Shown one piece after another: positions 1,990 through 53,172 of a stretch of 64,000 bases of DNA. A program made the translations under genes and the position numbers. The DNA comes from Nanobdellota archaeon (GTDB lineage Archaea > Nanobdellota > Nanobdellia > Tiddalikarchaeales > Tiddalikarchaeaceae). The DNA lies in contig JAFGFH010000008.1 of NCBI GenBank assembly GCA_016931175.1, positions 18,477 through 82,476 on the forward strand, read 5' to 3'. The first letter of the stretch is position 1, and the number at the start of each line of letters is the position of its first letter. The notes under the pieces were generated by a model, which saw only the letters and a list, made by a program, of their open reading frames with translations, ran no database searches and had not been told where the DNA came from.

Positions 1990-2775
1990 TCACTTTATTC
2001 CTTTAATTACTTCAACTATCTTTTCTCTTATTTTAAAACTTTTCGTTAAGCAGTTCCCAACTTCTTCAAGAGTGAAGCCTCCTTCTCCTCCTTTCTGCAA
2101 AGCGTTGATTTCCTTATCACTGCAGGTAACGGTTAGTCTCGCAGAAGCGCACTTCTCCTCTTCATTGTCAGGATCAACCATTATCTTATCCTCTATTTTA
2201 ACAAAAGTTATTGGTATTGGAACCCTTTTGAAAGGAACCTTTTCATCTGTCCATTCCCCGAGAACCACGTTCCCTTCCTCGTCAAGCTTAGGCATCCTCG
2301 CTGTTTTAAGAGCAGCTATTGAAGCCAAACCGCACGCGTCGATTAAGTTGCCCGCATTATTCAGTATGTAAAAGTCTACGAAGATGTTCCACACCTTCTC
2401 TCCTTCAACAATGCAAAGTTTTTCAAAATCAACAGCTTCACTTTCCCTGATTCCCCTGTCAACAACTCTTGACAACTCTATAGCATCCTCTCTAGGAGGT
2501 CCTGGTTCGAAGTCAGGGTCTGATATTGGACTTAACTCTCCAGAGCATATCAGGTTTCCCTTGTTTGGAGTGTCAGGGTAAGGAGTTCCTATGCTCATCT
2601 TAACCCCTGCCATTACAATAGTATCTCCTATGCTAACCTTAGCGCTTCCTTCAGCGTTCTTGCTCACGCCTGATTCTATTATAACATTCCTGAACTCTTC
2701 AAGCCCCCTGTTATCCGTGTTTCTCTTGTTCTTCTTTGCAAGTTCTATTATGTAATTCTTCACATCTTGACTCAT
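1990..2775 (-). CDS. rrp42: Exosome complex component Rrp42 (RNase PH-like, inactive subunit)
   Basis: 261 aa with an RNase PH fold pattern. Position is downstream of rrp41 in the superoperon. Confidence 0.8.
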   Translation of the reverse strand: MSQDVKNYIIELAKKNKRNTDNRGLEEFRNVIIESGVSKNAEGSAKVSIGDTIVMAGVKMSIGTPYPDTPNKGNLICSGELSPISDPDFEPGPPREDAIELSRVVDRGIRESEAVDFEKLCIVEGEKVWNIFVDFYILNNAGNLIDACGLASIAALKTARMPKLDEEGNVVLGEWTDEKVPFKRVPIPITFVKIEDKIMVDPDNEEEKCASARLTVTCSDKEINALQKGGEGGFTLEEVGNCLTKSFKIREKIVEVIKGIK

Positions 2776-4148
2776 TTTTTATCACTCTTTAATAATTGTT
2801 TTGCAATCTTGTCAGCTTCCTTAACCAATTCCTTGCTGACTACTCCTTCCTTTTCGTAATCTTCAAGCAAGTCTTTGCCAATAACTTCCTTGTTATCATC
2901 AGCAGTGTTAACCACTAATTCAAGGGATATTGCTACTGCCCTGTTAGACTGCAGTTCTATTGGAGTGTTTATTGAATAAAAGACTGCTTTTAATTCGTCA
3001 TCTTTAGAGTAAAACTCGTGCTTAACAAACCATTCATCATCTTTAATCAATGAATGCACGTAGTCTCCTCTTTCAACACTCATATTTATAGGTCTGAGAA
3101 CTGAACCGCTCTTAACAAACCTCTTAATTTTTATTACATTATTCTCTTTCTCAATGATTCTTCCCTTCAAAAAATTCGTAGAACCATTCATTTTATTCTC
3201 TGCTATTAAGTAAATGTCTCCTAATTTAGCACCTTTCTCGCTCGTGAATTCAGCAATCTTCTCATTTATCTTCTTCTCGTTTAGCTTTTCTTTTATTAAG
3301 TTCTCGCTGAAGTCAACAATGTTGGCGAAGATGTCAGTCTTTAAACTGTGATGGTTCTCAATTGTTGGCTTTATCTCCCTTCTTAATTTGTCAAGCTCCT
3401 GCTTTGTCTCCTTGTCAAACCTTATATAACAAGTCATTACTCCTTTGCTTAAGACTTTAATATTGTCCTCTTTCTCAAATGCTCTCTTTATATTAGCATA
3501 ACCTTCGTACAAGTCTTTAATCTCTTTCACAAGCTCTTCTTTTTTCTTGCTCGCAGCGCTCGTCTTCCATAAAGCACCCCATCCTTCCTCACAGTTCTCT
3601 TCAGCAACGTTGTTTAACAAGTTAATCACTTCCTTGTCTTTTATGTTATTTGATATCTTAGTGAATCCTTTCTGGATTAGTACAACATTGTTGCCGAACA
3701 AGTGTATCTTGGTTGATAACACGTAACAGTCCTTCTCTTCATTCTTTAACTGGACTAGTATCTTCTCGCCCTCTTTCACATAACCCCAGTAATCCTTCAA
3801 AGGCAATAGTCCAATCTTTTTCAAACCTAAGTCAACGTGTATGTTCTTAGTGTTAGGGTCTAATTTGATTATTTTTCCCAAATACAAGTGTCCGCTGGTT
3901 TCAGTCTGGATTACTGCATTCTTAAACTTTCTGAATATCTCGCAGACCTTATCCGCTTCTTCTCCTTTAACTATGATGCCTCCCTTGTCTGAGAAATCGT
4001 GAATCATAGTTGTGTAGTCTTCAGCAAACTTTGCCTTGCTGAAGCTTGCCCTGACATTATCACTTGGTTGTGCAACACTCATCTTATTCTTTAATAACAA
4101 GTTAGTTATTGCACTGCTGTAGATTCCTCTTATTTTAACTCCGCTCAT
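2772..4148 (-). CDS. FAU-1-like RNA-binding protein / RNase E/G-like ribonuclease
   Basis: 458 aa. The N-terminus MSGVKIRGIYSSAITNLLL...VAQPS resembles the conserved start of archaeal FAU-1 (RGIYSTAL...QPS). The size is typical of that family. Assigned from memory of the family, not a search. Confidence 0.45.
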   Translation of the reverse strand: MSGVKIRGIYSSAITNLLLKNKMSVAQPSDNVRASFSKAKFAEDYTTMIHDFSDKGGIIVKGEEADKVCEIFRKFKNAVIQTETSGHLYLGKIIKLDPNTKNIHVDLGLKKIGLLPLKDYWGYVKEGEKILVQLKNEEKDCYVLSTKIHLFGNNVVLIQKGFTKISNNIKDKEVINLLNNVAEENCEEGWGALWKTSAASKKKEELVKEIKDLYEGYANIKRAFEKEDNIKVLSKGVMTCYIRFDKETKQELDKLRREIKPTIENHHSLKTDIFANIVDFSENLIKEKLNEKKINEKIAEFTSEKGAKLGDIYLIAENKMNGSTNFLKGRIIEKENNVIKIKRFVKSGSVLRPINMSVERGDYVHSLIKDDEWFVKHEFYSKDDELKAVFYSINTPIELQSNRAVAISLELVVNTADDNKEVIGKDLLEDYEKEGVVSKELVKEADKIAKQLLKSDKK

Positions 4149-16026: not shown

Positions 16027-16099
16027 TAGCCCTGCCAGGATTCGAACCTGGGTTGGCTGGTTCAAAGCCAGCTGTCCTTGACCACTAGACTACAGGGCT
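16027..16099 (-). tRNA. tRNA-Gln (anticodon UUG)
   Basis: Minus-strand sequence AGCCCTG TA GTCT ... GCTGG CUUUGAA CCAGC ... CCAGG TTCGAAT CCTGG CAGGGCT folds as a cloverleaf with a perfect 7-bp acceptor stem. CCA is not encoded. Confidence 0.85.
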
Positions 16100-16142
16100 G
16101 TACGTTCTAAATTATTATAGAAGACTATTATTTTTTAAAACT

Positions 16143-17240
16143 TTACTTCCCTGCTGACTGCTTCATTAAGGACTTTGCAGTGTCTAAACAATCAACTAGT
16201 GTGAGCAGCAGGTCAAAACCTGTCTTTTTAATATTAATATTCTTTCCGTCGCGGATTATGTTCATATTCATCTCAACCTTTCCCTCACTGCGGCTGTCAT
16301 GAATTCTTTTTATAAATATTTTAATCTCTTTAATCTTGTCAGCATCTCTTGGCAGCAGCCTTAACTGGTTTGAAACTATGGTTCTTAACTCGTAAGCAGC
16401 ACTGTTAGGAACCTCACCGCTTATCTCTAAATCAATCCCTTTCTTTGAAATAACTGATTGAATAGTCTTTAAGACGCTGCACCTGTCAAGAACACCAATA
16501 GGTTCGTTGCTTGAGTTAACGACTATTAATCCTTTCAAGTTATTGTCAATCATTGTCTTCATCGCATCCCTTAATTTAGAATCAATAGTTGTTTTAATTC
16601 CAGGAATAATTAATCCCTCAATACTCACATCCATTAACTTGCTAATCTCACTCTTCATCAATTTTCTTCCTATCTTATTAGGCGCGTCTGAATAGAAAGT
16701 TCTTAATAAATCAATCAAGAGTATTGTTCCGACGAACTTGCCTTTCTTGTCAACCACTGGGAGCCTGTCCCTCTTGTTAAAGTTCATAATATTCTTAACC
16801 TCTCCAAGATTAGCATCCTCAGTCACGGGCTTAACTGATTTTACATTAGAATCACTGACTAATAATTTAGACAATGCAGGCTCTTTCATGTAATTCTTAA
16901 TAATATCATAGTCTGAAACGAATCCTTTAATCACTCCTTTCTTGTCAACCACTGGGAGCCCTGTTAATCCGCTGTTTAACATCTTATCAAGAACGAAATC
17001 TTCACTGCTGTCCTCATGTATTGTATGGGTTGGGTTCATGAAATTGCTGACCTTACTGTCCCCCCTGAATCTTATAATGTTTAATATATCAAAGTATGAA
17101 ATGCTTCCAATAACCTTGTTGTAACCGTCAACTACAGGTATCTCTTTATAGTTATTCTTATCCATTAGGGCAATAACATCCCTTAACAAATTTTCAGTTG
17201 TTGCAGTAGCAACTTTTTTGCTCATTATAGACTTGATCAT
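16143..17240 (-). CDS. CBS domain-containing protein (four CBS motifs plus C-terminal domain)
   Basis: Repeated CBS-like blocks (IPVVD..G.VIG.IS..DIL). Confidence 0.6.
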   Translation of the reverse strand: MIKSIMSKKVATATTENLLRDVIALMDKNNYKEIPVVDGYNKVIGSISYFDILNIIRFRGDSKVSNFMNPTHTIHEDSSEDFVLDKMLNSGLTGLPVVDKKGVIKGFVSDYDIIKNYMKEPALSKLLVSDSNVKSVKPVTEDANLGEVKNIMNFNKRDRLPVVDKKGKFVGTILLIDLLRTFYSDAPNKIGRKLMKSEISKLMDVSIEGLIIPGIKTTIDSKLRDAMKTMIDNNLKGLIVVNSSNEPIGVLDRCSVLKTIQSVISKKGIDLEISGEVPNSAAYELRTIVSNQLRLLPRDADKIKEIKIFIKRIHDSRSEGKVEMNMNIIRDGKNINIKKTGFDLLLTLVDCLDTAKSLMKQSAGK

Positions 17241-21372: not shown

Positions 21373-21630
21373 ATGAGTTTAAGAGATTTAGAAGCAAAGC
21401 TTGAAGAATCCCTTGTTGAAATCTCAGCAAAGAGAGGAAAGTTCGAGCTCAAATACAAGATTGTAAGCGATGAGTACTTCAACTTGTGGCTGGACGTTTA
21501 TAATACATTAAAAGATGACGAGAGTTTCAGGAGCTTTACAATGCTTAACTCTTCAGTAATCTTCGGATTCAACCCTGAAAGATTCAAGTACCAGAATGAG
21601 ATGTTCGGGGATCCCTTAAAAATTATTTAA
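21373..21630 (+). CDS. Hypothetical protein (85 aa)
   Basis: ORF with an upstream TATA-like CTTTTTATAC. Confidence 0.3.
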   Translation: MSLRDLEAKLEESLVEISAKRGKFELKYKIVSDEYFNLWLDVYNTLKDDESFRSFTMLNSSVIFGFNPERFKYQNEMFGDPLKII

Positions 21631-23273
21631 AGCAGGTCTTCCACCATTTTAATAGTATTAGCCTCGTCAGGTGTCTTGTCAGGCCTGAACCTTACAAGTC
21701 TCGGGAATCTTAACGCGTAACCGCTGGAATATGTTGGGCTTTTCTGTATCTCTTCATACTCAACCTCTACGACTATTGCCGGTTTCAAGACCACTTTAGT
21801 ATTAGTCTCTTCCTCTATATTCTTCTTCACCAACTCATTCATCTTTGCCAAGTCCTCGTCACTGAAACCTGTTCCAAGCTTGCCGACTGTCAAGAACTCT
21901 CCTGTTGTATCATCATAGCATGATAGTGTGAAACTGCCGAACCACTTGCTCCTCCTGCCTTTGCCGTAATACGCTTCAGTAACAACTAAATCTAATTCTT
22001 TCATGTGAGTCTTTAACTTAACACCGTAACCTACCCTGCTTCCAGCCTTATAATTAGCTTTCAAGTTCTTGAACATGACGCCTTCCTGCTCCTTAATGCC
22101 TTCCTCGAATAACTTATTCGCCTCTTCCTCGCTGCTTGTCTTAATACCTTTAACCATCATAATATGCTCGTCCTGTTTAATTATTGAAACGAGTTTGTTA
22201 TGCCTGTACTCGAAACTATTATCCAATAAACTCTTGCCATCGCACATTAACAAGTCAAAACAGAAGAGTTTCACAGGAATCTCTTTAATAATCTCATCAA
22301 TGTCATACTTCCTCTTAACTCTCCTGCTTAACTGCTGGAAAGGCATTGGCTTATTAGTCTTGGGGTTAAAAGCGACCATCTCGCACTCAAAGATTACATT
22401 ATCAGCATTAACTCCTTTCTTAACGTATTTGACCGCGTCAGGGAACTGCTTCGTAACCTCATCCAAGTTCCTTGTAAAAATGCGAATCGTATCAGCTTTC
22501 TTGTGAATCTGCGCCCTAACACCGTCATACTTAACCTCTATAATTGCCGGTTTGCCAACCTTTTCAAAGCCTTCACTAACACTAGTAACTTTCTGGTAAA
22601 GCATTAAGTTAATAGGGTTGAACAGTTTCAAACCTAATCTCTTTATTGAATTAGGATTATTGCACAAAGTTTCAGCAACGAGTGAGTAATCAGTGCATAA
22701 GTTGTAAGCCTTCTCTATCTCTTCAGCACTGGTGTTAAATGCCTTTGATAACGCGTCCCTTACAACTCCTGTGCCAACTCCTGTGCGCATGCTTCCAAGA
22801 ATAATCCTTGTAAGGAATAAAGCTTCATCACTTCCTGCAGAATTCAACAACCTGCTTATTGTTTTAAGTTTCCTGTCAACACTGCCCTTTCCTTCAATAA
22901 CTGGTATCTTGTAAAGAGTGTCCTTAACTGATTCGAGAGTAAGCTCTTCATTTAACAGACTAACCTGTTTCTTGTTCTTCATCAAGTACTTAGCTGTCTC
23001 TCCCAAGTCACCGTACGCTTTCCAAGTCTTCATAACCTCTCTCTTTTCAGTACCGCTGGCAAGAGCTAAAGCATCAATCATCATATTATTAGCCACGCCT
23101 AATTCTTGCTCATTATTTGTTGGAAAAATCCTTCCCATGCATAATAATACGACAAATCCTATGTCTTTGCATTTCGTTTTTTTCAAAAAACTGCTTAAGA
23201 TTTCCGTCATCTTTAAGCGTTTAGTTGTTGATGATAACTGGTTGAATAATTGAACTAACTCTTTGAATATCAT
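21627..23273 (-). CDS. lig: ATP-dependent DNA ligase
   Basis: Motif I EVKYDGVRAQIH (KxDGxR adenylation lysine). 548 aa, typical of archaeal Lig. Confidence 0.85.
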   Translation of the reverse strand: MIFKELVQLFNQLSSTTKRLKMTEILSSFLKKTKCKDIGFVVLLCMGRIFPTNNEQELGVANNMMIDALALASGTEKREVMKTWKAYGDLGETAKYLMKNKKQVSLLNEELTLESVKDTLYKIPVIEGKGSVDRKLKTISRLLNSAGSDEALFLTRIILGSMRTGVGTGVVRDALSKAFNTSAEEIEKAYNLCTDYSLVAETLCNNPNSIKRLGLKLFNPINLMLYQKVTSVSEGFEKVGKPAIIEVKYDGVRAQIHKKADTIRIFTRNLDEVTKQFPDAVKYVKKGVNADNVIFECEMVAFNPKTNKPMPFQQLSRRVKRKYDIDEIIKEIPVKLFCFDLLMCDGKSLLDNSFEYRHNKLVSIIKQDEHIMMVKGIKTSSEEEANKLFEEGIKEQEGVMFKNLKANYKAGSRVGYGVKLKTHMKELDLVVTEAYYGKGRRSKWFGSFTLSCYDDTTGEFLTVGKLGTGFSDEDLAKMNELVKKNIEEETNTKVVLKPAIVVEVEYEEIQKSPTYSSGYALRFPRLVRFRPDKTPDEANTIKMVEDLL

Positions 23274-23307
23274 AAAGATTTAAAACAGTGGGAGTAATTA
23301 AAACATT

Positions 23308-23850
23308 ATGGATTTGCTTGACGTTATAAAGCAGAGGCGAAGCGTTAGAGAGTACACAGATAAGCTTGTTGAGAAAGAGAAGCTTTTCAAGGTTCTTGAA
23401 GCAGGCAGGTGGAGCCCTTCAAGCGGCAACGTTCAAAACTGGCGGTTTGTTGTAGTAACTGAACAAGGAATTAAGATGCAGATTGCTGAAGCCTGCCTTG
23501 GACAATTCTGGCTCACAGGCGCGCCAGTAATCATAGTTGTTGCCAGTGATGAAAGCAAGCTTAGGATGCTTTTCGGGCAGAGAGGTGAGAGGTTTTATTC
23601 TATACAGAACTGCAGTGTTGCCATAATGAACATGATGCTTGAAGCCCAGAGCATTGGCTTATCAACCAGTTGGGTTGGAGCTTATGATGCGGAAAAGATA
23701 AGAAGAGTCTTGAAGATAGAAGACCCTAATATTACAATAAGAGGGATTTTAAGCCTGGGATATGCTAAGACGACGCCTCCCCCTCCAAGAAGATTAGACC
23801 TTGACAAACTAGTATACTTTAACGAATTCGGCAACAGCATCTTCAAATAA
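23308..23850 (+). CDS. Nitroreductase family protein
   Basis: RRSVREY...W.PS..N.Q.W.F.VV pattern. Confidence 0.75.
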   Translation: MDLLDVIKQRRSVREYTDKLVEKEKLFKVLEAGRWSPSSGNVQNWRFVVVTEQGIKMQIAEACLGQFWLTGAPVIIVVASDESKLRMLFGQRGERFYSIQNCSVAIMNMMLEAQSIGLSTSWVGAYDAEKIRRVLKIEDPNITIRGILSLGYAKTTPPPPRRLDLDKLVYFNEFGNSIFK

Positions 23851-27060: not shown

Positions 27061-28137
27061 TTAAAGCATTTTTATGCCGAGCGCTTGAGTTTCTGCTCCC
27101 TGTCCTTCTGCAGCAGCCCCTAACTTCTGAGGACCAACTATGTACGGGCTCTTAACCCCTGTTATTATGCTCATTATTCTTATCTTTCCGTTCATCTTCT
27201 CGTCAATACGAGCTCCCCAGATTACGTTAGCGTCGTCATTCAATGACTGCGTTATTAACTCTGCTGCCCTGCTGGCCTCTTCAAGAGTCATGTCCATCCC
27301 GCCTGTTATGTGGATTAATGCTCCTTCAGCACCAGTGTAGGTTACGTCAAGCAAAGGATTATTCAATGCCCTGTTAACAGCTTCGTCAACCTTTTTGTCG
27401 CTTGAGCTTTCTCCTATTCCCATAGCGCACAAGCCTCCCATTTTCATAATCGCTTTTACGTCAGCGAAGTCCAAGTTTATCAAGCTAGGTAATGCTATGG
27501 TTTCAACAATTCCTTTAATCATTGTTGATATCAGCTCGTTAGCTACAGCGAATGACTGTTGTATTGGCAGGTTTCCTGCAATCTCAACCAGTTTATTATT
27601 GTCTATAACAATTACTGAATCGCACTGTTCTCTTAACAATTGAAGTCCGAACTCAGCCTTGTCAATCCTTACCCTTTCAACGTTGAAAGGCATTGTTACA
27701 ACACCGATTACTATTGCTCCCATCTCTTTACCCATCTTAGCAACTACTGGAGCAGTTCCTGTACCTGTTCCTCCTCCTAGTCCTGCACAGACGAATAATA
27801 AATCAGTGTTCTTAAGCAAGTTTTTTACATCGTGCTGGCTTTCTTCAACTGCTTGCGCCCCAATCTTTGGGTGTCCTCCAGCACCAAGTCCGCGAGTTAA
27901 TTCCTTGCCAACTAGTATTTTCTGGTCAGCATTCCTCGCATTCAAGTGTTGAGCGTCAGTGTTTAATAGTATAGTCTCAGCTCCTTCTAATCCCTTATTA
28001 TACAACCAAGATACGGCGTTGTTTCCTCCGCCACCGCAGCCAATAACCTTAATATTAGCCTGTCCCTCTATTCCGTTTGTTAAACCTTCCATGAAGTCAT
28101 TCTGACTCTTCAAGGCATTTTCAACCAAAAAGTCCAT
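27061..28137 (-). CDS. ftsZ: Cell division GTPase FtsZ
   Basis: Tubulin/FtsZ signature GGGTGTGTAPVVA and GTP-binding N-terminal GGGGNNAV. Confidence 0.9.
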   Translation of the reverse strand: MDFLVENALKSQNDFMEGLTNGIEGQANIKVIGCGGGGNNAVSWLYNKGLEGAETILLNTDAQHLNARNADQKILVGKELTRGLGAGGHPKIGAQAVEESQHDVKNLLKNTDLLFVCAGLGGGTGTGTAPVVAKMGKEMGAIVIGVVTMPFNVERVRIDKAEFGLQLLREQCDSVIVIDNNKLVEIAGNLPIQQSFAVANELISTMIKGIVETIALPSLINLDFADVKAIMKMGGLCAMGIGESSSDKKVDEAVNRALNNPLLDVTYTGAEGALIHITGGMDMTLEEASRAAELITQSLNDDANVIWGARIDEKMNGKIRIMSIITGVKSPYIVGPQKLGAAAEGQGAETQALGIKML

Positions 28138-28236
28138 GTTTCATCACACCCCCAATGTTCATGTAATTTTTTTGTTGGTACCGATATACATCTCCGCAAA
28201 GTATTTAAATCCGCGACAGTATAACTACCATTAGAA

Positions 28237-28303
28237 GTAATTCGCCAAAATTACACTCGCCAAAGTGTGATTTCCAATTTGAGCTTCACTCGCCAAAATG
28301 AAG
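28237..28303. promoter_or_regulatory. Array of three tandem hairpins with conserved loop TCGCCAAA and covarying stems (candidate sRNA or operator array)
   Basis: GTAATT-CGCCAAA-AATTAC (28237-28254), ACAC-TCGCCAAA-GTGT (28253-28268), CTTCAC-TCGCCAAAA-TGAAG (28284-28303). Flanked by CGCGA (28212-28216) and TCGCG (28304-28308), which could close a multi-stem junction. Confidence 0.5.
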
Positions 28304-28427
28304 TTCGCGATTTCTAATTTTATTAATGATTCCGCGTATTTATATACTTGTATGTCTCTCTAAACTATATATCGTAAAATATCTTTTTGGAAAATCTTTT
28401 TATAAACCCTAAAAATAATTTAATTCT

Positions 28428-38071: not shown

Positions 38072-38140
38072 GCTACTATTTATTTGGGAGTTTTTGTTTT
38101 TTAAAACTTTTTAAAATCTTAGATACTATTCTTTAGAATA

Positions 38141-39247
38141 ATGAATGCTAAGACTCGCATGTTGTTAAGTGCAGTAGCCACGCTTGTAGGAACCGTTGTA
38201 GGAGCAGGTTTTCTGGGAATACCAAAGGCTTTAACTATGAGCGGTTTCCTGCCAGGACTCTTAATGATGATGGCTGTAGCTGTTGTTATGATAATCATGA
38301 GCTTGTTCGCAACCGAGCTCAGCCTGAACACGAAGAAGGTGCACCAGATGCCAGGAATGGTAAGCAAATACTTAGGCAAAAAGATAGGAGTAATAGCAAG
38401 CATAGTCTTTGCGCTAATCAGTGTGGGAGCAATGATGGCATACCTGATAGGTTGCTCGGACATAATAAGCCATTATACTGGGATAAACCAGTTATACTGC
38501 ATGATAGCTTACTTTTTGATACTCTCATTCTTCGTATTCAAAGGTTTAAGGCTGATAGAAAAAGCAGAACTATACCTTGGCATTGGTATGATAATCTTCT
38601 TATTAATACTTGTTGCTTCATTGTCTGGCAACTTTAATATTAACAAATTATTAATCTTTGAAATAACCAACCTCATAATACCTTTTGGAGTTATAATATT
38701 CAGCTTCGGAGGCTACAATGTCATGACAGAGGTGGAAGAGATAACTAACGGCAGCAAAGATTTAATGATAAAGACGAGCTTCATAGGCACGCTAATACCT
38801 TTCGTATTCTTTTTAAGCTTTGCAGTAATAATGCTGGGCAGCTTCGGGGGCAGCGTAGCAGACATAGCTACAGAGAGCCTTACAGGTTGGGTGGGAGTAA
38901 TAGGCAACACCATAGCCTTCCTTGCAATGACGAGCTCTTACATAATAAGCGGACTGCTCATGAGGGACATGTTCATCGACGACCATGGTATGAAGCCAAC
39001 AATGAGTTCGTTAATAACAATGATAACTCCTTTACTTATAGTCCTCCTCGCATCTCCAACATTCATAGACACGCTCGCATTCACAGGAGCAGTCCTTGCA
39101 GGCTTATTCGCGGTAATACTCTCAGCAACGGTAATAGTGCACAGGAGAAAGATAAGAAAAGCTTACTTCACAACACCGGGAGGAATAATTACACCAATCC
39201 TCACAAGCTTGTTCTTTTTAGCAGGAGTAATAATAATATTAACATAA
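38141..39247 (+). CDS. Amino acid permease (APC/AAAP-type transporter)
   Basis: 11 predicted TM helices. N-terminal GAGFLGIP motif typical of amino-acid transporters. Confidence 0.6.
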   Translation: MNAKTRMLLSAVATLVGTVVGAGFLGIPKALTMSGFLPGLLMMMAVAVVMIIMSLFATELSLNTKKVHQMPGMVSKYLGKKIGVIASIVFALISVGAMMAYLIGCSDIISHYTGINQLYCMIAYFLILSFFVFKGLRLIEKAELYLGIGMIIFLLILVASLSGNFNINKLLIFEITNLIIPFGVIIFSFGGYNVMTEVEEITNGSKDLMIKTSFIGTLIPFVFFLSFAVIMLGSFGGSVADIATESLTGWVGVIGNTIAFLAMTSSYIISGLLMRDMFIDDHGMKPTMSSLITMITPLLIVLLASPTFIDTLAFTGAVLAGLFAVILSATVIVHRRKIRKAYFTTPGGIITPILTSLFFLAGVIIILT

Positions 39248-52140: not shown

Positions 52141-52218
52141 AAGGAAAATAAGGACTTTATTCATTTTTAATTGTTTTCATAAGGCTTTTAAACAGGATAC
52201 TTTTCAGAAAATACTATT

Positions 52219-53172
52219 ATGAGTTTTGAAGCATTATACGCGAAACTTGGCAAAAAAGACAGAGAATACTATTTTACTAAAGGAGTCTTAAGAGTTAATC
52301 CTAAAAACATTGAAGTGCCTCCAGTATTAGCACTGCACTTAAACAGGGTTTGCTACAACAAGTGTGAGCGCTGCAGCCTTCCAAGCAATGGTGAAGAGCT
52401 TAACTACTTGCCTGCAATAAAATACTTGGATTACTGCAATGATTACTTCATGCTCAGCGGGGGGGAACCGCTTCTAAGCAAGGACTTCAAAGATGTTCTT
52501 AATGCTTACAAGATAAGTAAAAAAAGAGGCACTTTCCAGGTCTTAACAGGAGGATTGAATCCGAATGTTAATGAAACAGTTAAAGAATTATACGCCAATA
52601 ATCTTGAAGCCTTGTTTAGTTTCCAGAACAGTGGCAATTATTTAGCGCTCATTATTTACTCCTTCTTTGAAGGAGTAGAGCCGGAAAAGAGACTTACAGA
52701 CTTTCTTGAATTATACAAGTCAATAAATAAGAATTACAAGCAAAGGATTGGTTTAGAGTTCTGCGTCGTCTCTGACAATGATGAGGAAGCTGTTAATAAA
52801 GCTAATTTCGTAAGCAAGAATTTCCATAAAATATTAGGAATTAAACTTACTAAGGATTTATTATTCTTTGACAATGTATACTCTAATGGTAGAACGGGAG
52901 AAGTAATTTTTGACTCTGAATGCGACTTATTCAATGCAATCATTGTATCAAGCAATGGATTAGTAAGGCCTTGCTGCAGCAATGTTGAGAGAGGAGAATA
53001 CTTGCCTCCAGCAGGCAGGACAGGGGAAGAGTTTATTCCATTAAGGGATAAGTTATACGCTTATTACGGTTTAATACAAGAGTTTCAGGAAGAATCAGGC
53101 AGTAATAAGTGCGTTAACTGCATTAATAAACTGCCTGCTTATTTGATTAATAAATTGGAGGGTTTAAAGTGA
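52219..53172 (+). CDS. Radical SAM domain protein with C-terminal Cys-rich (SPASM/twitch-like) region, paralog 1
   Basis: CX3CX2C (CYNKCERC) about 45 aa from the N-terminus. SGGEPLL glycine-rich SAM motif. C-terminal Cys at C..CC...C..C. Confidence 0.6.
   Translation: MSFEALYAKLGKKDREYYFTKGVLRVNPKNIEVPPVLALHLNRVCYNKCERCSLPSNGEELNYLPAIKYLDYCNDYFMLSGGEPLLSKDFKDVLNAYKISKKRGTFQVLTGGLNPNVNETVKELYANNLEALFSFQNSGNYLALIIYSFFEGVEPEKRLTDFLELYKSINKNYKQRIGLEFCVVSDNDEEAVNKANFVSKNFHKILGIKLTKDLLFFDNVYSNGRTGEVIFDSECDLFNAIIVSSNGLVRPCCSNVERGEYLPPAGRTGEEFIPLRDKLYAYYGLIQEFQEESGSNKCVNCINKLPAYLINKLEGLK

Follow-up and report, generated by a model that had tools for sequence, protein, structure and literature searches.

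The 64,000-nucleotide stretch of contig JAFGFH010000008.1 analysed here (hereafter the window; G+C content ~37%) contains an intergenic spacer (28138-28427) that separates ftsZ (27061-28137, minus strand; Pfam Tubulin and FtsZ_C domains) from gltX, the plus-strand gene for a class-I glutamyl-tRNA synthetase (GluRS), which is followed on the same strand by gatD and gatE. These are the flanking genes named in the original prediction for this DNA, made from the sequence alone, which had described in the spacer an array of three tandem stem-loops with an identical loop on three different stems. The FtsZ protein shares 100% identity with a protein of a metagenome-assembled genome listed at NCBI as 'Nanoarchaeota archaeon', and its closest other relatives come from 'Candidatus Nanoarchaeia', Woesearchaeota and 'Ca. 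Tiddalikarchaeum', which places the organism among the DPANN archaea, in the Nanoarchaeota/Woesearchaeota group.

The motif TCGCCAAA occurs three times on the plus strand of the spacer (28242-28249, 28257-28264 and 28290-28297), and every copy lies inside its own, different, perfect inverted repeat, as originally described. About two copies per window are expected by chance and the count alone is not significant; the clustering of three within 56 nt is. No further exact copy is present on either strand in the whole window, and variants with one mismatch are, if anything, rarer than expected (26 observed against 48). In hairpin 1 (28237-28254; GUAAUU [CGCCAA] AAUUAC in the RNA) the arms GTAATT (28237-28242) and AATTAC (28249-28254) enclose the loop CGCCAA at 28243-28248. 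Hairpin 2 (28248-28273) has the core ACACU [CGCCAA] AGUGU with its loop at 28258-28263, and its perfect arms ACAC (28253-28256) and GTGT (28265-28268) can be extended to AAAUUACACU and AGUGUGAUUU, forming 10 bp including one U·G. In hairpin 3 (28281-28306) the arms GAGCUUCA and UGAAGUUC, with core CUUCA (28284-28288) and UGAAG (28299-28303), enclose C UCGCCAAA A, with CGCCAA at 28291-28296; the extended stem contains one G·U pair that is legal on the plus strand only. Hairpins 1 and 2 cannot both form fully because they share bases 28253-28254. The minimum-energy fold retains extended hairpin 2 and hairpin 3, while UCGC of hairpin 1 pairs with GCGA at 28307-28310 and the 5' AGAAG pairs with the region 28312-28324. 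Taken as a plus-strand RNA, 28233-28324 folds with -21.2 kcal/mol (z = -4.0), and none of 200 shuffled sequences folded as well.

Regions upstream of ftsZ were gathered by a genome scan, exact-protein look-ups, a metagenome pattern scan and a viral-contig scan. The comparison set comprises 20 distinct loci including the window, all from Nanoarchaeia/Woesearchaeota, with FtsZ identities from 100% down to 63% (individual loci are cited by L number). Of the 20 loci, 19 (the window and 18 of its 19 relatives) have two to four short hairpins in the equivalent position, oriented alike with respect to ftsZ. The loop is CGCCAA in 16 loci, usually within UUCGCCAAAA, and the distant loci L136, L137 and L139 have loops of GCCCRA type (UGCCCAA, CGCCCAA or UGCCCGA). 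The ftsZ-gatD spacer of L234, from a CG10-type archaeon with an FtsZ that is 63% identical, has no recognisable CGCCAA or GCCCRA loop. In their place, positions 2227-2500 of that locus bear GCUCAAAG and GCUCCAAAG, possibly a diverged form of the array.

In a gap-free alignment of 33 distinct hairpins from 14 taxa the CGCCAA loop is invariant and the 8-bp stem varies in a compensatory manner, with double-sided changes at all eight pairs. Paired cells make up 80.7% of the stem, against 54.8% in shuffled alignments, and stem covariation is 0.668 against 0.211, a value reached in none of 500 shuffles; controls in which the register was slid gave covariation of only 0.08-0.19. The 6-nt loops are closed by a U-A pair, swapped for G-C in L016 and L138. 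Stems as different as ACAC/GUGU, AUUUAC/GUAAAU, UACAA/UUGUA, UCGU/ACGA, UUUCAU/AUGAAA, ACAAGU/ACUUGU and UUGAGUU/AACUCAA carry the loop. The changes compensate within single orthologous positions as well: hairpin 2 is found with ACAC/GUGU, UACAA/UUGUA and UUUAC/GUAA stems, and hairpin 3 with UCAU/AUGA, GCAU/AUGU, UCGU/ACGA and UUUCAU/AUGAAA. RNAalifold applied to four full-length arrays recovered hairpin 2 alone, because the copy number differs between loci and the alignment is poor. The hairpin motif is genuine and under selection, and the proposal that a conserved loop on differing self-complementary stems betrays selection on a hairpin is borne out by the relatives.

A covariance model built from the hairpin alignment matches hairpin 1 at 28228-28263 (28.5 bits), hairpin 3 at 28276-28311 (30.2 bits) and, with 22.7 bits (E = 0.013), a hairpin of L138 on which it had not been trained. 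Across 190 kb of DPANN DNA its significant matches are all upstream of ftsZ. Two extra TCGCCAAA sequences in L003 lie inside an open reading frame (ORF), and the one that the model detected (18 bits, E = 0.26) is probably a chance match. The metagenome pattern scan gave 120 matches, mostly chance matches in high-GC DNA or unrelated tandem repeats; the true ones were L016, L022, L068, L087, L113 and duplicates of known loci, and all of these adjoin ftsZ where the contig extends far enough (L022 and L087 end at the array). A two-copy pattern scan of viral contigs gave 94 matches in coding sequence or tandem repeats, none of them with ftsZ or the module. Four homologous viral contigs (L149, L162, L180 and L199; 41-47% G+C, no ftsZ nearby) carry CCUUCGCCAAAAGG and ACGUUCGCCAAAACGU ~40 nt apart, and our guess is that these encode a repeated peptide motif unrelated to the archaeal element.

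Together, the covariation, the invariant loop and the ftsZ-only matches of the model argue for a selected hairpin and not a dispersed repeat. A generic repeat such as a miniature inverted-repeat transposable element (MITE), which the original prediction had named as a finding that would refute it, was rejected, as no further copies exist in the window or in the related loci. The array does share with MITEs and with repetitive extragenic palindromes (REPs; bacterial interspersed mosaic elements, BIMEs) the clustering of short imperfect palindromes between genes. Unlike them it occupies a single locus per genome sample and recurs neither in the rest of the 64 kb window nor in ~125 kb of related DNA; it conserves loops, where REPs conserve stems, and it has neither the terminal repeats nor the target duplications of MITEs.

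In all 19 positive loci ftsZ adjoins the array, and it is the only neighbour conserved with it. The neighbour on the other side is gltX-gatDE in several relatives as in the window; L011, L012 and L014 have a convergent peptidase or amidohydrolase gene there, L136 a HAD hydrolase gene and L138 a nitroreductase gene. The orientation of the array to ftsZ is unchanged across all these variants, and hence it belongs with ftsZ and not with the translation genes. The suggestion that it couples ftsZ to gltX-gatDE is consequently not supported; gltX also has a proximal promoter-like site of its own at 28391-28408. On the minus strand ~175 nt separate the array from ftsZ, with no run of four or more T in this interval of the window. 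A small peptide was rejected as the product of the spacer: all overlapping ORFs are of 32 amino acids or fewer, and the short ATG-started frame within the array (28298-28363) has no counterpart in L001. In L001-L004 and L012 a gene of the cytidine/deoxycytidylate-deaminase family (147-153 aa, tadA-like; 2289-2732 in L001, 3277-3720 in L002 and 1305-1748 in L012) lies between the array and gltX, a position at which the window has no such gene.

Most genes of the window have, ~20-27 nt ahead of the ATG, an A-rich transcription factor B recognition element (BRE) ending in G or C that is followed by a TATA box of TTTWWAAA type, and they appear leaderless. An unsupervised BRE+TATA matrix was derived from 27 other upstream regions of the window (consensus AAAAAG-TTTTTAAAAAAA) and used to scan the spacer. 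On the left it finds a plus-strand promoter-like site at 28196-28213 (BRE GCAAAG, TATA TATTTAAAT at 28203-28211; scanned as GCAAAGTATTTAAATCCG from 28196, 8.8 bits), and on the right a minus-strand site at 28335-28352 (BRE ACAAG, TATA TATATAAATA from 28346 down to 28337; scanned as TACAAGTATATAAATACG from 28352, 7.7 bits). By the genome's own consensus these flanking TATA boxes point inward, over the array; their outward orientations are outside the ten best matches of the scan, i.e. below 4.0 bits. This speaks against the earlier placement of the array upstream of the likely promoters of both genes. The top matrix score in the spacer, 11.5 bits, belongs to the minus reading of the gltX-proximal TATA (TTAGGGTTTATAAAAAGA, 28395-28412) and is probably a by-product of a palindromic A/T-rich box. 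Among the 18 loci scanned, an equivalent plus-strand site lies 26-53 nt before the first loop and scores at least 6 bits in 16 (it is weak in L137 and L139). A site comparable to the right-hand promoter lies 33-40 nt past the last loop in most relatives, and an inward pair with similar spacing is present in most of the loci scanned.

The element TTAGAA (28231-28236, plus strand) lies 19-20 nt after the left TATA and would place the start of a plus-strand RNA at ~28233. The same hexamer occurs at the expected transcription start of the tRNA-Gln gene, ~20 nt past its TATA, and at least one protein gene of the window (38141) has it close to the predicted start; T(A)AGAA is conserved in most relatives. 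At the other end of the array, 28312-28324 reads TTCTAA, a partner of the 5' AGAA, and then TTTTATT, a T-rich and likely termination tract. Read on the minus strand the TTCTAA is again TTAGAA (28317 down to 28312), 19 nt from the right TATA, and predicts a transcript that starts at ~28315, some 85 nt from the other start, and runs through the array toward ftsZ. Because of its position at the tRNA-Gln gene we read TTAGAA as the putative initiator of both convergent promoters. An outer helix between TTAGAA and TTCTAA, considered as evidence of RNA structure, was downgraded, since two initiators explain these sequences better; a short pairing of the 5' and 3' ends in this region is possible from the predicted fold. 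Elsewhere in the window ACTATT often stands directly before the ATG, and ACTATT and TTAGAA look like lineage-specific proximal and initiator elements. Examples of AAAAG-type BREs with a TATA box are found at 16099-16170 (minus) and at 38100-38141, 52180-52219 and 58005 (plus).

Beyond the right-hand promoter the alignment reveals a conserved block, TATGTC-N10-ATATATCG (28351-28374), of which ATATATCG (28367-28374) shows almost no variation across 14 taxa, including those in which no gene follows. An inverted copy, CGATATA, is present on the ftsZ side (28182-28188) in the window's own clade. Lying ~45-55 nt upstream of the predicted ftsZ-facing start, the block might be a regulator-binding site. 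The array and the right-hand promoter persist where convergent unrelated genes replace gltX, and the promoter site is kept without a following plus-strand gene in L011, L012, L014 and L068 (L138 has an equivalent of different sequence). The retention of promoter and ATATATCG under these circumstances argues that the right-hand promoter serves the ftsZ side.

The four-way junction envisaged between CGCGA (28212-28216) and TCGCG (28305-28309) finds no support in the comparison: the pair is absent from all relatives, and CGCGA precedes the point at which the RNA is predicted to start. The further GC islands pointed out around the array (TCCGCGA, TTCGCGA and TCCGCGT at 28210-28216, 28304-28310 and 28330-28336) do exist, two of them placed symmetrically just inside both TATA boxes. 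They are specific to this genome and absent from the relatives, and were not confirmed as meaningful.

Three observations agree that the structured strand is the plus strand, antisense to ftsZ. The mean folding z-score of the whole array over the 19 loci is -2.64 on the plus strand compared with -1.12 on the minus strand, and the plus strand has the better score in 18 of the 19, although these lineages are not all independent. Interior non-Watson-Crick pairs are more often G·T on the plus strand (10 cells, ~8 events) than A·C (4 cells, 2 events), with five or six further interior G·T from the distant loci. Finally, on the plus strand 14 of 19 loci have a run of four or more T within 35 nt after the last hairpin, compared with 4 of 19 on the minus strand. 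The case for the plus strand is good but not absolute.

Under the opposite assignment the ftsZ mRNA would start at the right-hand promoter and have a long structured 5' leader made up of the array, whose loops U-UUGGCG-A would be bound by a regulator of translation or stability, as in CsrA-type leaders. That ftsZ has a leader, unlike most window genes, is suggested by the Shine-Dalgarno-like GGGGGUGUGAU (28143-28153, minus strand), 5-15 nt before its AUG, which is kept as GGGGAGUGUG in relatives; a Shine-Dalgarno sequence without a canonical promoter near the ATG is unusual in the window, where the surrounding genes appear leaderless. A structured leader would also account for the strict linkage and orientation to ftsZ and for the retention of the right-hand promoter whatever the right-hand neighbour, and it could draw on the C·A next to the loop of hairpin 3, which becomes U·G on the minus strand, and on the UUGG of the minus-strand loops, which fits the YUNR pattern of antisense systems. 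Against this, the minus strand has the poorer z-score in 18 of 19 loci (mean -1.1), most interior non-Watson-Crick pairs are G·T on the plus strand and become A·C mismatches on the minus strand, and in many relatives the leader would include a T5 complementary to the left BRE. We consider a functional minus-strand structure unlikely.

Nor do the data favour an element that acts as DNA, be it a set of direct-repeat operators, a replication origin or the site of a cruciform- or hairpin-binding protein. An invariant 8-10-mer could be a protein site in duplex DNA, the spacer has a rough dyad symmetry (a 38-nt imperfect inverted repeat pairs 28199-28236 with 28312-28349), and the cumulative GC skew has its minimum at ~28 kb, where the gene orientation switches. 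Recognition of a duplex, however, would be expected neither to produce compensatory stems nor to show strand-specific G·T pairs and z-scores, and the spacing of the copies varies from 15 to ~48 nt across copies and taxa, with no helical phasing. The variable spacing, the covarying flanks and the strand-specific G·T pairs led us to reject direct-repeat operators, as the original prediction had done. The skew is a coding-strand effect (0.171 +/- 0.011) with a small residual side effect; after correction for the strand the effect is weak, extends as a broad plateau over 12-28 kb and lacks a specific breakpoint at 28 kb. No Orc1/Cdc6 gene was found adjacent to the array in the 20 loci, whose neighbours are ftsZ, gltX, gatD, deaminase, hydrolases, nitroreductase and DNA ligase, nor among the 17 window ORFs tested. 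With no such neighbour, and with the skew explained by gene orientation, an origin was rejected as the main reading; the dyads moreover vary and the centre alone is conserved, unlike origin recognition box (ORB) and mini-ORB repeats, which keep their dyad sequence and flank an AT-rich unwinding element. Stems of 4-8 bp with 6-10-nt loops would make poor cruciforms. A DNA-level element in any of these forms thus seems very improbable. Of the options originally offered, a small structured RNA, a cruciform or a protein-recognised hairpin, it is the plus-strand small structured RNA that now reads best, and the cruciform that is disfavoured.

We propose, with moderate confidence, that the array is a plus-strand small RNA of ~90 nt whose loops are recognised by a factor and which controls the expression of ftsZ. 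The comparison establishes the conserved hairpins with their invariant loop, the folding bias toward the plus strand, the exclusive linkage to ftsZ and the promoter- and terminator-like signals; transcription of either strand, the RNA ends, the factor and the effect on ftsZ are what we infer here. The RNA would extend from ~28233 to ~28321, starting at the left BRE/TATA/TTAGAA, divergently from ftsZ, and ending in the T-rich tract past TTCTAA. It would fold into two or three hairpins (two to four in relatives), each showing CGCCAA. Since identical loops sit on unrelated stems, they would offer several docking sites to a single factor acting in trans; this factor is most likely a protein that binds RNA, possibly an oligomeric one. 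The right-hand promoter would fire back through the array toward ftsZ and probably give the ftsZ mRNA a long leader. With the promoters converging across the array, the small RNA would be perfectly complementary to the first ~85 nt of this minus-strand transcript, and ftsZ expression might be set by sense/antisense pairing through loop-loop contacts between mirrored hairpins or, by an alternative route, by the collision of convergent polymerases. The loop-binding factor would modulate whichever of these routes operates.

The same hairpins, strand and promoter evidence would fit a plus-strand small RNA that acts purely in trans, as a sponge or scaffold for a protein and with no direct effect on ftsZ. 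Such an RNA might sit beside ftsZ through a shared regulatory region or through co-expression in the cell cycle. A protein-binding site would explain the strict invariance of the loop over copies and taxa; cis-antisense pairing alone cannot do so, because any loop would then be tolerated. A purely trans-acting RNA leaves unexplained, on the other hand, the conserved promoter that faces back toward ftsZ where no other gene could use it, and also the constant ftsZ adjacency and orientation in 19 loci with otherwise varied neighbours. We regard this alternative as possible but doubtful.

Several observations weigh against a small RNA that controls ftsZ from the opposite strand. The promoters and starts on both strands, like the terminator, are no more than matches to a consensus. 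In archaea a T4 tract terminates transcription only weakly, and in several loci the first T5-6 comes only past the ATATATCG block, so that the RNA could be ~160 nt long. In the L001 clade a T5 (the left-BRE complement) lies between the array and ftsZ and could end the minus-strand transcript short of ftsZ. The left TATA (ATTTAAAT) is palindromic and could drive ftsZ directly, in which case the right-hand promoter would make antisense RNA only. As regards the structured strand, summed minimum free energies of the single hairpins are equal (-214 versus -216 kcal/mol), a measure that proved uninformative and was replaced by the whole-array z-scores, and the loop-adjacent C·A of hairpin 3 in the window clade and L013 is a legal U·G on the minus strand. 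No complement of the loop, as a target, is present in the 64 kb window. By-eye comparison with several ftsZ leaders showed no conserved complement of the loop in the ftsZ ribosome-binding site or start region, and pairing of the loop with either was rejected on that basis.

Among known systems the array appears to resemble most closely the Csr/Rsm multi-hairpin RNAs and the kissing-loop cis-antisense systems, as a member of neither. CsrB/CsrC and RsmX/Y/Z are bacterial protein-sequestering RNAs with many GGA-loop hairpins. Like them the array has several hairpins with freely varying stems around one conserved single-stranded motif and a copy number that varies between relatives (2-4 here), and it would appear, from its promoter-like signals, to be a separate small transcription unit. 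It differs in its loop, CGCCAA or GCCCRA against their GGA (ANGGA), in having only two to four sites, in being fixed beside one gene and in overlapping a convergent promoter. DPANN archaea are not known to have a CsrA-type system, and a Pfam scan of 17 window ORFs and one ORF from L001 found no CsrA. Mimicry was also considered and set aside, as the loop presumably fits neither a tRNA anticodon loop, T-loop or acceptor end nor a recognition loop of RluA or Nep1 type.

With CopA/CopT of R1, RNA I/RNA II of ColE1 and Anti-Q/Qs of pCF10 the array would share convergent promoters, here predicted, and RNAs complementary over ~85 nt. Stem-loops that mirror each other, with loops of 6-8 nt, are possible on the two strands of the array, the presumed target gene would be downstream of one of the promoters, and the minus-strand loops UUGGCG or UUGGGC contain UUGG, which fits YUNR, the loop pattern of antisense RNA systems. 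Unlike these systems of bacterial plasmids, the array would concern an archaeal division gene on the chromosome, and its loop identity over copies and taxa is far stricter than kissing needs. DicF and StfZ, bacterial RNAs with a repressive effect on ftsZ, are precedents for a small or antisense RNA acting on ftsZ expression, as proposed here, though neither resembles the array in sequence or structure. DicF, the product of a prophage, acts in trans by pairing with the ribosome-binding site of ftsZ, whereas no conserved complement of the array loop was seen near the ftsZ start.

A more specific and more tentative possibility is that these archaea possess a dedicated RNA control module for FtsZ, an analogue of Csr/Rsm wired through convergent transcription into the ftsZ leader, in Woesearchaeota/Nanoarchaeia. 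The two to four CGCCAA hairpins would then titrate or recruit a sequence-specific RNA-binding protein. If the loop does bind a protein, this would give archaea their first Csr/Rsm-type hairpin RNA with multiple sites; if the RNA is an antisense partner of the ftsZ leader, it would represent a conserved archaeal control of a core cell-cycle gene by convergent promoters.

The region 28138-28427 has no match in Rfam 15 even at E <= 10, the comparison with that database called for in the original prediction, and at the gathering threshold the whole window yields four tRNAs only. We found no description of the element in the searchable literature. The putative hairpin-array RNA is thus an undescribed motif and a candidate for a new Rfam family, for which a short covariance model suffices as definition. 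Most DPANN archaea are uncultured, and their genomes are tiny; to our knowledge almost no regulatory RNAs have been described in them, and we know of no account of how they time division, possibly in step with a host. A deeply conserved structured RNA fixed beside ftsZ provides a testable handle on DPANN division, because the RNA can be mapped in existing metatranscriptomes and the invariant loop can serve as bait for the binding factor.

Two further features of the window and its relatives were recorded. A 458-aa ORF on the minus strand (2772-4148) has a weak match to the RNase E/G family (PF10150, E = 2e-8), to which the RNA-binding FAU-1 proteins of archaea belong; its product might bind or process RNA, though nothing connects it with the array. 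In many of these genomes nitroreductase and ATP-dependent DNA ligase genes occur within a few kb of ftsZ. The putative counterpart in the window is 21627-23850; in L006, L007, L013, L136, L138, L139, L234 and L235 the genes were called as such, and this neighbourhood downstream of ftsZ constitutes conserved synteny.

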